Below are positions 3,761-6,093 of a stretch of 64,000 bases of DNA, piece by piece. How positions within the stretch are numbered: position 1 is the first letter of the stretch; every line of letters starts with the position of its first letter. This DNA comes from Syntrophales bacterium (GTDB taxonomy: Bacteria; Desulfobacterota; Syntrophia; Syntrophales; UBA2210). The notes beneath the pieces were generated by a model. That model was not told the origin of the DNA, did no database searches, and saw only the letters and a list, made by a program, of their open reading frames with translations. Location: assembly GCA_963662405.2 (NCBI GenBank), contig CAXXKT010000001.1, forward strand, positions 160,001 through 224,000, in the 5' to 3' direction. The translations under genes and the position numbers were made by a program.

Positions 3761-4045
3761 GATTCTTTCCTTTTATCTGGTTTGCTTTGCCAGCAAAGGG
3801 GATTTTTGATGTCAGACCCGATAAAAAAAACTACCATAGCAATCTGTCCATCACATCTATACCACATGTTAATTTAGAATACTGTCATTTTACATTGCTT
3901 AATGCAGATAATTCGTTGTCACTGTATGAAAGTAATTCCATGGACTATATGACCTGAATATTTTATATCCAAGTCGAGATCTTTCAATCCGCAATCATCA
4001 GTATGCGAAGTTTTCAAGGATATTTGTTTGTAGATACCGTTCTTG

Positions 4046-5014
4046 TCAAGCGAAAGCTGGTTTATAATTTGGGTCATACTTTTTGCCGGATTTCAGGATT
4101 CCAAAGATAAGGTGCACCAGCTTCCTCATTATCGCACAGACAATCACTTTCCCGTTTTTTCCTTTCTCTTTAAGGCGATTATAAAAAGCAATCATAACGG
4201 GATTACATTGGATCGATACCAGTGCCGGCATATACAGAGCTTTTCTGAGCCGCGCATGTCCGATTTTGCATAACCTGGGTTTGCCTTTAATAGATGATCC
4301 TGAAAGTGTTTCCCGTGGCGCAAGCCCGATGAACGCCACCAGTTCCCGCACATGACTGAATTTGTCCAGATCATCCAATTCTGCCAGGATGTGAGGAATG
4401 GTTGCCGTGCCGATACCTGGAATGGAAGCCAAGAGCCCTTTCTTGTTTTTCAGGTTCGGATCCCGATCAATTAGATCAGCAATCTGTTCCCTGATTTTCT
4501 CTATTTCCTTATCAAGATAGTTAATGTGTTCTCTGATCAATGGAATAACTGATTCATGAGCTGCACTTATTCGATTCTTCTCCTGACTTCGCATGTTGAT
4601 CAGACTGTCAACTCGCCTGACCAACGCCCTCAGGGCTCTGATCTCCGGTGAGGGTGGACTCCAGGGATCTGGTCTCATAGCCAGACAGAATCTGGCAATC
4701 AAGGCTGCATCAATCTTATCCGTCTTGGTGCGAATCAACTCGCTCTGGCCAAACCCTTTGATGCGAGCGGGATTGACAACACTGACCACATGGCCGGTTT
4801 CATGGAGATAGATCGCCAATTCCTCTCCATAGTTGCCGGTCGCCTCAAGGCAGGCATGTACCTTATGAACTCCCTGTCTCTCCAGCCAGATCGTCAGTGT
4901 CTCAAAACCTTCCACCGTATTTTTGCAGGTTTTGTGTTTTGTCTTCCCCTCTACAAGAAGTGCAACGTCGAATTTCTGTTTTGCGATATCTATCCCAAGA
5001 ACCGATACTGACAT
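4046..5014 (-). CDS. IS110-family transposase/recombinase, apparently intact (322 aa)
   Basis: DEDD tetrad (GIDIAK, LEATG, KTDKIDA), SIPGIG, catalytic Ser in LSGSS, LRKALYMPA, AIMRKL. Confidence 0.97.
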   Translation of the reverse strand: MSVSVLGIDIAKQKFDVALLVEGKTKHKTCKNTVEGFETLTIWLERQGVHKVHACLEATGNYGEELAIYLHETGHVVSVVNPARIKGFGQSELIRTKTDKIDAALIARFCLAMRPDPWSPPSPEIRALRALVRRVDSLINMRSQEKNRISAAHESVIPLIREHINYLDKEIEKIREQIADLIDRDPNLKNKKGLLASIPGIGTATIPHILAELDDLDKFSHVRELVAFIGLAPRETLSGSSIKGKPRLCKIGHARLRKALYMPALVSIQCNPVMIAFYNRLKEKGKNGKVIVCAIMRKLVHLIFGILKSGKKYDPNYKPAFA

Positions 5015-5061: not shown

Positions 5062-5266
5062 TCGTTCGAATCAACCTTGCAAGTGCAAACTCATTCCCAT
5101 CTGAGAAGGTTTATGATACCGTACGAGTTATTGAACAAAGCTGTGGGAAGAGGATCTACTCTACAAATCATGCTCTCTGGCATCAGGTGAAACACAGATT
5201 CACTCTCCCCATTTTACCCCAGTGTCTCAAGATCTCTTATATCTCCTAATCCCCTTCTAGAACACA
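5062..5266 (-). ncRNA. Predicted IS110 bridge RNA (ends approximate)
   Basis: Non-coding left end contains target guides TTTCACCT (5185-5192) and TTTGTAG (5161-5167) inside a stem/internal-loop/stem, and donor guides ACGGTATC (5115-5122) and GCAAG (5076-5080). Confidence 0.82.
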
Positions 5267-5356
5267 AGGTGAAACACAGATTCACTCTCCCCATTTTACC
5301 CCAGTGTCTCAAGATCTCTTATATCTCCTAATCCCCTTCTAGAACACAAGGTGAAA
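5185..5356. repeat. Exact 82-bp tandem duplication of the IS110 left end (2 units plus 8 bp)
   Basis: AGGTGAAA recurs at 5185, 5267 and 5349; units 5185-5266 and 5267-5348 are identical by eye. Confidence 0.95.
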
Positions 5357-5413
5357 AGTGTGAGATCCGGTATAGTAGGGGCAGATCGAGTGTTTTGCTG
5401 CACCATTCTTCCT
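5349..5413 (+). repeat. Copy B of the diverged direct repeat, interrupted by IS110
   Basis: Removing the IS restores GTAGGTGAAAAGTGTGAG, versus GTAGGTGCAAGATGTGAG in copy A. Confidence 0.85.
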
Positions 5414-6093
5414 CCTTGATACAATTCAAATTGAAGCAATTGTCAAAGATTGTTTTCAGGAAGGGTTTGCCCTGACCAAAGGAGTCCTCGGCCCAAAAGG
5501 ATGGAACCCGGAAGCCGATTAAGACGGGTAGATGGTAAATCCTGCTTGGACATTGTTATTGGTTTTGAAGACCCTCGACAGAAAGAATGCAAGCCCACCT
5601 GAAAAGGCTCAAGCTAAGACCAAGGCGGGAGTGATGGGGTCCGAAATATGCTTTCGCGGTGTGTTAAGGTGGCATTTATCATCTTGATATGAAATGACTT
5701 TCTCGACATGATATATGGTCACATATCCACTGGCTGACGGTCTTGACACTCCTTCCTGCCCGTTTCCATATCCTGGGTTAGGCCTTTTTTTCAAAGAAAA
5801 GGCTTGATTATCTCAAAACGCGAGTATAACTTTATTTGGAGGATGTTGTGTATTTCAACAGTTCTAGAAAATATCTGACTCAGAGGTTCCTATAGCGAAA
5901 TATCCAAGCCCCATTTCTCGCAATAGAGAGGATGGGTTTTGTGTTTTCAGGAGGACTCCTTGCCCGATCAGCGGGTAGGAAAGGTCAGGTGAATTAAGGT
6001 GAACGTTTTTTATGCGTGCGGTGCGCATTGGACACTTTGGAGTGCTCGCGCAATCGAATCGAAAACCATGTAGGACATCAGAGGAGAGGATAC

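Follow-up and report, generated by a model that had tools for sequence, protein, structure and literature searches.

We analysed a 64,000-nt stretch of DNA from a Syntrophales bacterium (GCA_963662405.2, CAXXKT010000001.1, 160,001-224,000), hereafter the window, and all positions without a contig name refer to it. The window carries an IS110 element with an intact recombinase and a predicted bridge RNA encoded in its left end. This left end holds an 82-nt tandem duplication whose boundary lies at the CT core of the element's own left target guide (LTG). The features at the duplication are as follows.

5349-5357, minus strand: outer left insertion junction, with left target TTTTCAC, CT core 5350-5349, then the left end TGTGT
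5269-5350, minus strand: unit 1 (82 nt), made up of the core, the right donor half (RD), the left end, the 5' strand of the target-loop stem and a copy of the LTG
5267-5275, minus strand: inner junction, with guide DNA GTTTCAC, CT core 5268-5267 and RD, which reads as a second left junction
5187-5268, minus strand: unit 2 (82 nt), identical to unit 1 and running into the intact bridge-RNA gene
5185-5193, minus strand: LTG GTTTCAC with the CT core of the intact bridge RNA, then GATG; covaries with insertion flanks

The duplication and its assembly

The results showed an exact period-82 repeat at 5185-5356, with 90 identical positions at lag 82 and two identical units. On the minus strand the order is target-CT-unit-CT-unit-CT-GATGCC, and the cores lie at 5350-5349, 5268-5267 and 5186-5185. 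The 8-mer TTTCACCT occurs at each of them: it is followed by TGTGT at 5356-5349 (outer) and 5274-5267 (inner), and by GATGCC at 5192-5185 (guide). These positions bear out the first-pass annotation, which had described an 82-bp duplication ending exactly at the CT of the element's own target guide and had read the inner junction as a fresh left end attached at the core to guide DNA. The recombinase, the guides and both outer junctions are left intact. In the predicted fold of a transcript starting at the outer core, the upstream stem strand pairs with the 3' strand of the loop (0.87 versus 0.10), a pairing that is predicted to distort the target loop; a circle formed at the inner core is predicted to restore a normal left end.

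The genome holds five copies of the element, and a repeated element can give rise to an assembly artefact. The other four copies are 94-100% identical and lack the duplication. We examined the window in contigs of two runs of the same sample, X1 and X2, at the level of contigs only; X2 is possibly the source of the assembly itself. Positions 5245-5266 are the starts of the 31-mers that occur only at the inner junction. In X2, a 52-nt contig (5245-5296) consisted of exactly these 31-mers at depth 5, close to the single-copy flanks (4.2-4.5), and another contig started precisely at 5185. X1 had no junction contig among the records listed, and its contig 5163-5271 ran unbroken, which speaks for an artefact; graph cleaning that drops a short low-depth link would account for this lack. 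The same architecture was found in other elements, one such event in two assembly records, and related solo units were found in many complete E. coli genomes. We thus confirmed that the duplication of the window is real, and the misassembly raised in the first-pass annotation is very improbable. Near-exact tandem duplications with units of 40-200 nt are rare in this 3.8-Mb genome, numbering only three with that of the window included; the other two lie at G000:C1:897937 (81 nt) and C1:2738524 (42 nt).

The guide-encoding DNA as a left half-target

The remaining features of the element are given below.

4046-5014, minus strand: intact IS110 recombinase, 322 aa, with PF01548 and PF02371, 45% identical to IS621
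4026-4040, minus strand: right insertion junction, with left donor ACGGTAT, CT core 4033-4032 and right target ACAAAC
5144-5211, minus strand: target-binding loop of the predicted bridge RNA (consensus fold, compensatory pairs)
5167-5161, minus strand: right target guide TTTGTAG, which predicts right flanks
5076-5139, minus strand: donor-binding loop of the predicted bridge RNA (consensus fold)
5122-5114, minus strand: left donor guide ACGGTATCA, equal to the element's right end
5081-5076, minus strand: probable right donor guide TGCAAG, its pairing inferred with two wobbles

Residues D9, E57, D99, D102 and S238 of the recombinase align with D11, E60, D102, D105 and S241 of IS621 (residue list in PMC11208158), and the protein combines a DEDD RuvC domain with a Tnp domain bearing the catalytic serine, as in the IS621-like group of IS110. 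Both element boundaries are common to all five genome copies, with a CT core at each end, a left target-right donor (LT-RD) junction and a left donor-right target (LD-RT) junction. No terminal inverted repeats were found among the repeats listed for the element, and no sigma-70-like promoter was found inside the 82-nt unit.

We collected family loci by a class-wide search (30 loci) and by a scan of all species genomes (79 loci). We scored 77 unique left flanks, which include the five copies of this genome; 10 rows were left out for short flanks, N gaps, variant ends or non-membership. The consensus of 34 left ends gave a two-loop fold with compensatory change in 9 of 35 pairs and with the guides sitting in the loops; the bridge RNA sequence of the window by itself was no more stable than shuffles (z -0.13). 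The assignment of TTTCAC-CT as the left target guide was tested on 87 unique insertion flanks, kin among which are not independent. Guide and flank agreed at 5.21 of 7 positions, a value reached by none of 5000 shuffles (mean 4.65, maximum 4.92).

In 27 of 30 insertions, 3-4 of 4 positions of the real right target matched the right guide. For the sequence that follows the guide's own core, the match was 0 of 4 positions in 22 of 30 elements, that of the window included, and 1 of 4 in the other 8. A canonical full-match insertion into guide DNA would thus find a right target matching at 0-1 of 4 positions in 30 of 30 elements. Because of this mismatch, the guide-encoding DNA is, judged by its letters, a perfect left half-target that lacks the right half, and not a full target. 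The first-pass annotation had assumed that this DNA necessarily resembles the target; this holds perfectly for the left half and fails for the right half, with 0 of 4 in the window.

The target sites of the element were also compared. The right flanks (window 4031-3800, minus strand, and copies at C1:1416k, C1:159k, C1:305k and C2:344k) are mutually similar, four clearly and that of the window more loosely. They consist of about 45 nt followed by a TTGACA-type promoter-like stretch, with a terminator-like hairpin in three. The target of the element therefore seems, from these flanks, to be a dispersed repeat upstream of a small transcript. The left flank 5357-5420 also belongs to a small repeat family (G000:C1:235914-235981, C1:305083-305112), and the repeat copy at C1:235914 ends in CAC-CT-TGTCC without this element. 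A further copy of this IS110 lies 5.5 kb from that of the window and ends some 210 nt ahead of the window start (C1:159787).

Duplications and solo units in other elements

The duplication of the RD-to-LTG segment recurs in independent elements. An element found as L029, L091 and L094 carries an 83-nt duplication with identical units in two assembly records, and its protein is 80% identical to the recombinase of the window. A scan of metagenomes for the guide-CT-RD junction gave two matches: L111, an 81-nt duplication with a third guide, and L110, which was rejected as a chance match with no element present. L115 is a decayed fourth guide-CT-RD junction. The three duplications have different guides and flanks, and the two units are identical in all three. 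When the window and L111 were excluded, both having been picked for their duplication, 1 of 85 loci carried one (L029). The 29 loci of a phylum search, which included distant IS110s at 32-56% identity, held no such duplication besides that of the window, and viral contigs held no relative of its recombinase.

The same segment also occurs as solo units (target-CT-unit-CT-right target), for which empty alleles were found in all cases: one clean and one decayed unit in the family, and three IS621 sites in E. coli. The decayed unit (C1:761866, own genome) consists of some 84 nt of left end, flanked by a left target and by host DNA, and relatives show the empty site within a base. A pattern fixed beforehand (guide context, CT, right target) was run on 339 genomes and gave 7 matches, of which 6 had no left end and one, L224, was a clean solo unit reading target-CT-84 nt-guide-CT-ACAAA, with the empty allele in a relative. 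The guide of L224 has only CT in common with its left target and ATCT in common with the right end. Of twenty short matches taken as possible solo units, most stopped at another place or at the end of a contig.

In E. coli, a query inside the IS621 unit matched 12,994 places versus 12,189 for a query just past the core. Of this difference, 556 and 39 places were explained and about 210 remained, which are probably other forms of the unit at znuB; these remaining places therefore only cap IS621 duplications at less than 2%. At flgK (L207, strain E2865), a 72-nt solo unit lies before the gene, with guide letters up to the core and the right target after it, and is an exact insert relative to the empty site in 3 of 3 relatives checked. 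Its junction 30-mer occurred in 39 of 5,426 E. coli genomes, of which 38, judging by their names and sizes, probably form one lineage; the remaining one is an independent solo unit at msrQ-zinT (L209), likewise with guide letters to the core and the right target after it. A third solo unit lies after znuB; of 5,426 complete E. coli genomes, at least 555 carry its ST131 form, and the site is empty in K-12. No full IS621 with a znuB-type guide was found, the guide-side 32-mer occurring at 556 places and the junction 33-mer at the same 556. The first-pass annotation had proposed two alternative excision cores, and the units of L224, flgK and msrQ-zinT match what would remain after excision at the inner core.

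We further examined 105 IS621 places in 8 chromosomes, two of which were picked for an anomaly pointing to a solo unit. They comprised three solo units, one copy cut at the core and no duplication. In the cut copy (L214:800, NZ_CP025892.1:4821200), IS621 meets an IS3-family end precisely at its guide core and lacks the left-end unit; the L214 count pattern is the same in three related strains. We considered this copy as a clean reciprocal deletion and rejected it, as the IS3-family end cuts it. Apart from this copy, no full copy without its left end was found among the 105 places.

Several further observations concern other left ends and elements. In L127/L055 (G337:C11:10753-10858), a family left end stops at the left donor guide (ACGGTATC, then T and unrelated DNA), possibly a donor-side counterpart of self-recognition. 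In L079/L128, the first 9 nt of the left end are repeated in the flank 11 nt upstream of the junction, which may be chance. In L114 (G298:C31), the left end breaks within the guide at a long perfect palindrome. The family elements L091, L057 and L100 lie on short contigs labelled with distant phyla, pointing to misbinning or horizontal spread. At G000:C1:387975 and 8 other places there is a second IS110-type element, whose 9 copies are identical over the stretches compared. It appears to target ribosome-binding sites, because it is bounded by AGGAG with a start codon after it in several cases, and no left-end duplication was seen in its copies. The window also contains two tyrosine recombinase genes in tandem (125-1859).

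Proposed one-sided joining and its alternatives

These findings show that a class of rearrangements at guide DNA is real and recurrent, and catalysis by the recombinase is likely. By construction, the DNA encoding the LTG forms a perfect left half-target with the CT core at its end. It may occasionally be engaged as such by the recombinase and bridge RNA of the same element, and its top strand cut just past the CT. The cut end would then be linked, on one side only, to the RD side of a left junction, which may be the element's own, 82 nt upstream, or that of a sister chromosome. Once this join had been made permanent by replication or repair, the RD-to-LTG segment would lie twice in tandem in its original place. 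Solo units would arise where this internal site is joined to a right target, by excision at the inner core, abortive one-ended insertion or insertion of a released unit circle, routes that the solo units do not tell apart. We give this one-sided joining, resolved in place, slightly better than even credence as the origin of the duplication, and self-targeting in any form, nested insertion with collapse included, is likely.

Preprints on half-match recombination and direct transfer allow for such a join. IS621 cleaves the top strand just after CT (PMC11208158), and its donor recombines with a single left-target half-site in vitro, with active enzyme only (10.64898/2026.08.31.748434). In CazIS110-1, the transfer of LT-RD to a new left target involves the top strand alone, the target is not rejoined, and tandem repeats arose in 3 of 96 excision colonies (10.1101/2025.10.25.684509). 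Such a transfer acting on guide DNA and the left junction would give the duplication in one step, with no nested copy or reciprocal deletion. Rejoined targets were detected at a low level after excision (PMC13626964), so that solo units could result from excision at the inner core. At our junctions, one arm and the CT core match the guide and the join lies just after CT, as in half-match recombination and direct transfer, with znuB ambiguous; the class is probably a variant of half-match recombination.

The comparison with each system also showed differences. The element resembles IS621 in its DEDD and serine recombinase, CT core, left-end bridge RNA with target and donor loops (PMC11208160, PMC11208158, PMC13626964), four guides and LT-RD and LD-RT junctions, and IS621 itself has solo RD-to-LTG units. 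A bridge-RNA gene acting as substrate, and duplications or solo units with a boundary at the guide core, do not figure in the accessible parts of those three descriptions. In the half-match study of IS621 (10.64898/2026.08.31.748434), one arm and the CT core were enough in vitro, the left-target half-site included; its genomic analysis concerns donor-type half-matches, from which left-target-only events are inseparable, and its available text does not discuss a half-site in the element's own guide gene. CazIS110-1 is similar in forming a new-left-target/RD junction from LT-RD without a circle, with tandem repeats as by-products of excision (10.1101/2025.10.25.684509); there the target is full and external, whereas here it is an internal left target without a matching right half. 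In expanded IS110 loci (10.64898/2026.08.14.744561) and ISPpu9 minicircles (PMC12288879), sub-units with one canonical end are duplicated, circularised or reinserted, as here; in the accessible text those units are mostly LD-matched or use duplicated end boxes, whereas ours are bounded by RD at one end and guide-encoding DNA at the other. As far as its available text goes, the 468 non-coding repeat loci of the former survey may include this class. We found no report of a bridge-RNA gene as its own substrate in a search that left most subscription papers and preprint supplements outside.

Since the target was chosen by the guide, the left target resembles the guide DNA, and host slippage or template switching between the two could yield the same duplication with no recombinase catalysis, perhaps aided by binding of the bridge RNA or recombinase; ordinary excision at the inner junction would later leave solo units. 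A short direct repeat is indeed present at both unit ends, with exact flank/guide homology of 8 nt in the window and 5 nt in L029 and in L111, and imperfect homology is longer in L029 (8/9) and in IS621. Target letters are present in the znuB solo unit, in greater number in ST131 than in ATCC 11775, and one flank (L050) shows an unrelated 45-nt duplication with 3-nt homology. Slippage should prefer longer repeats and scatter over the repeats available. The lengths and the location tend to speak against this, though n is only 3: in two of the three duplications the exact homology is just 5 nt, the most frequent value in the background, and a choice independent of length fits the values 8, 5 and 5 seven times better than 2^length weighting and about 900 times better than 4^length. 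The junction/guide pair makes up 1.3-5.7% of the local repeat weight; a tally of two out of two events at this pair was set aside, since the window had been picked for its duplication. Around 78 loci, with the window left out, we counted 1 other duplication per 5,069 repeat pairs of at least 5 nt, and genome-wide 2 other duplications against 622,010 such pairs, most of them inside genes. The local background predicts about 0.02 events in the 85 unpicked loci, and 1 was observed. L224 shares only CT with its left target. A hairpin joining the repeat ends was rejected as not common to the three units (top strands z -0.4, -2.5 and +1.7), and no clean reciprocal deletion was found in the family loci scored, the sole IS621 copy lacking the unit being the one cut by an IS3-family end. 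Slippage, also raised in the first-pass annotation, thus becomes less likely, yet it retains a real minority share of our belief.

The first-pass annotation itself favoured a circle inserted into the bridge-RNA gene of a resident copy. Half-match insertion of an excised circle into the guide DNA would create a direct repeat of 1.16 kb, and homologous recombination would then collapse this repeat and leave one extra left-end unit. This would give the same final sequence; four near-identical genome copies could supply circles, a donor circle and a left half-site recombine in vitro (10.64898/2026.08.31.748434), and IS110 is described as having no target immunity (10.64898/2026.08.14.744561). Two steps are required, however, and no nested donor-core-GATG junction was found in the genome, in X1 or X2 contigs or upstream of the family loci examined, nor was its counterpart found in IS621 copies. 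The units are also identical in 3 of 3 duplications, with no foreign incoming left end. Short-read assemblies would tend to hide nested intermediates, and collapse would erase the second junction. The route is not needed to explain the duplication, and we consider it improbable.

Several points weigh against one-sided joining by the recombinase. The right guide of ISPpu10 is stringent (10.64898/2026.03.19.712850), and the mismatch after the guide's own core is described above. In the IS110 survey, repeat-unit boundaries are mostly LD-matched, and its authors speculate that RD-initiated reactions excise and do not duplicate (10.64898/2026.08.14.744561). The lack of tandem duplications extends from the 105 IS621 places to viral-contig loci (0 of 9), and other left-end fragments end at scattered positions and not at the core. 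Two sites 82 nt apart on one duplex are hard to synapse. The znuB unit has a target letter 2 nt before the core, and its target letters near the core number one in ATCC 11775 (relative to the guide of that lineage) and two in ST131; it looks, from these letters, like a crossover left of the core or a later conversion. Pure guide letters were seen in 5 of 6 informative junctions (P ~0.11 against a coin). Every event falls within homology of at least 2-8 nt, unavoidable from the identity of guide and target, and the boundary alone therefore cannot separate catalysis from slippage. The events are few, and the final letters are the same by all routes; the sequence therefore cannot prove catalysis. 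The structure, its recurrence, the assignment of the guide and the exact boundaries at the core are shown by the sequences, and catalysis and the order of events are inferred.

CRISPR systems spare their own array through the PAM and repeat pairing. How bridge systems spare their own guide gene is not addressed in the accessible parts of the literature covered. The natural junctions described here suggest that self-avoidance is incomplete, and they name the exact substrate and products. We hold it evenly balanced whether bridge-RNA genes are built-in self half-targets across the IS110 group, restrained only by the mismatch after the core, and acted on often enough by the recombinase to define a discrete RD-to-LTG module of 72-84 nt, which would be duplicated in place, stay behind or travel as a minicircle. 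If this is true, bridge systems would have an intrinsic autoimmunity, and every guide cassette used in bridge editing would contain a predictable off-target. For annotation, solo left-end units of 72-84 nt in REP and other target sites form an unlabelled class of IS110 scars. For editing, any bridge-RNA cassette holds a perfect left half-target for its own guide, and such a cassette could undergo duplication or truncation or be fused to donor or target DNA.
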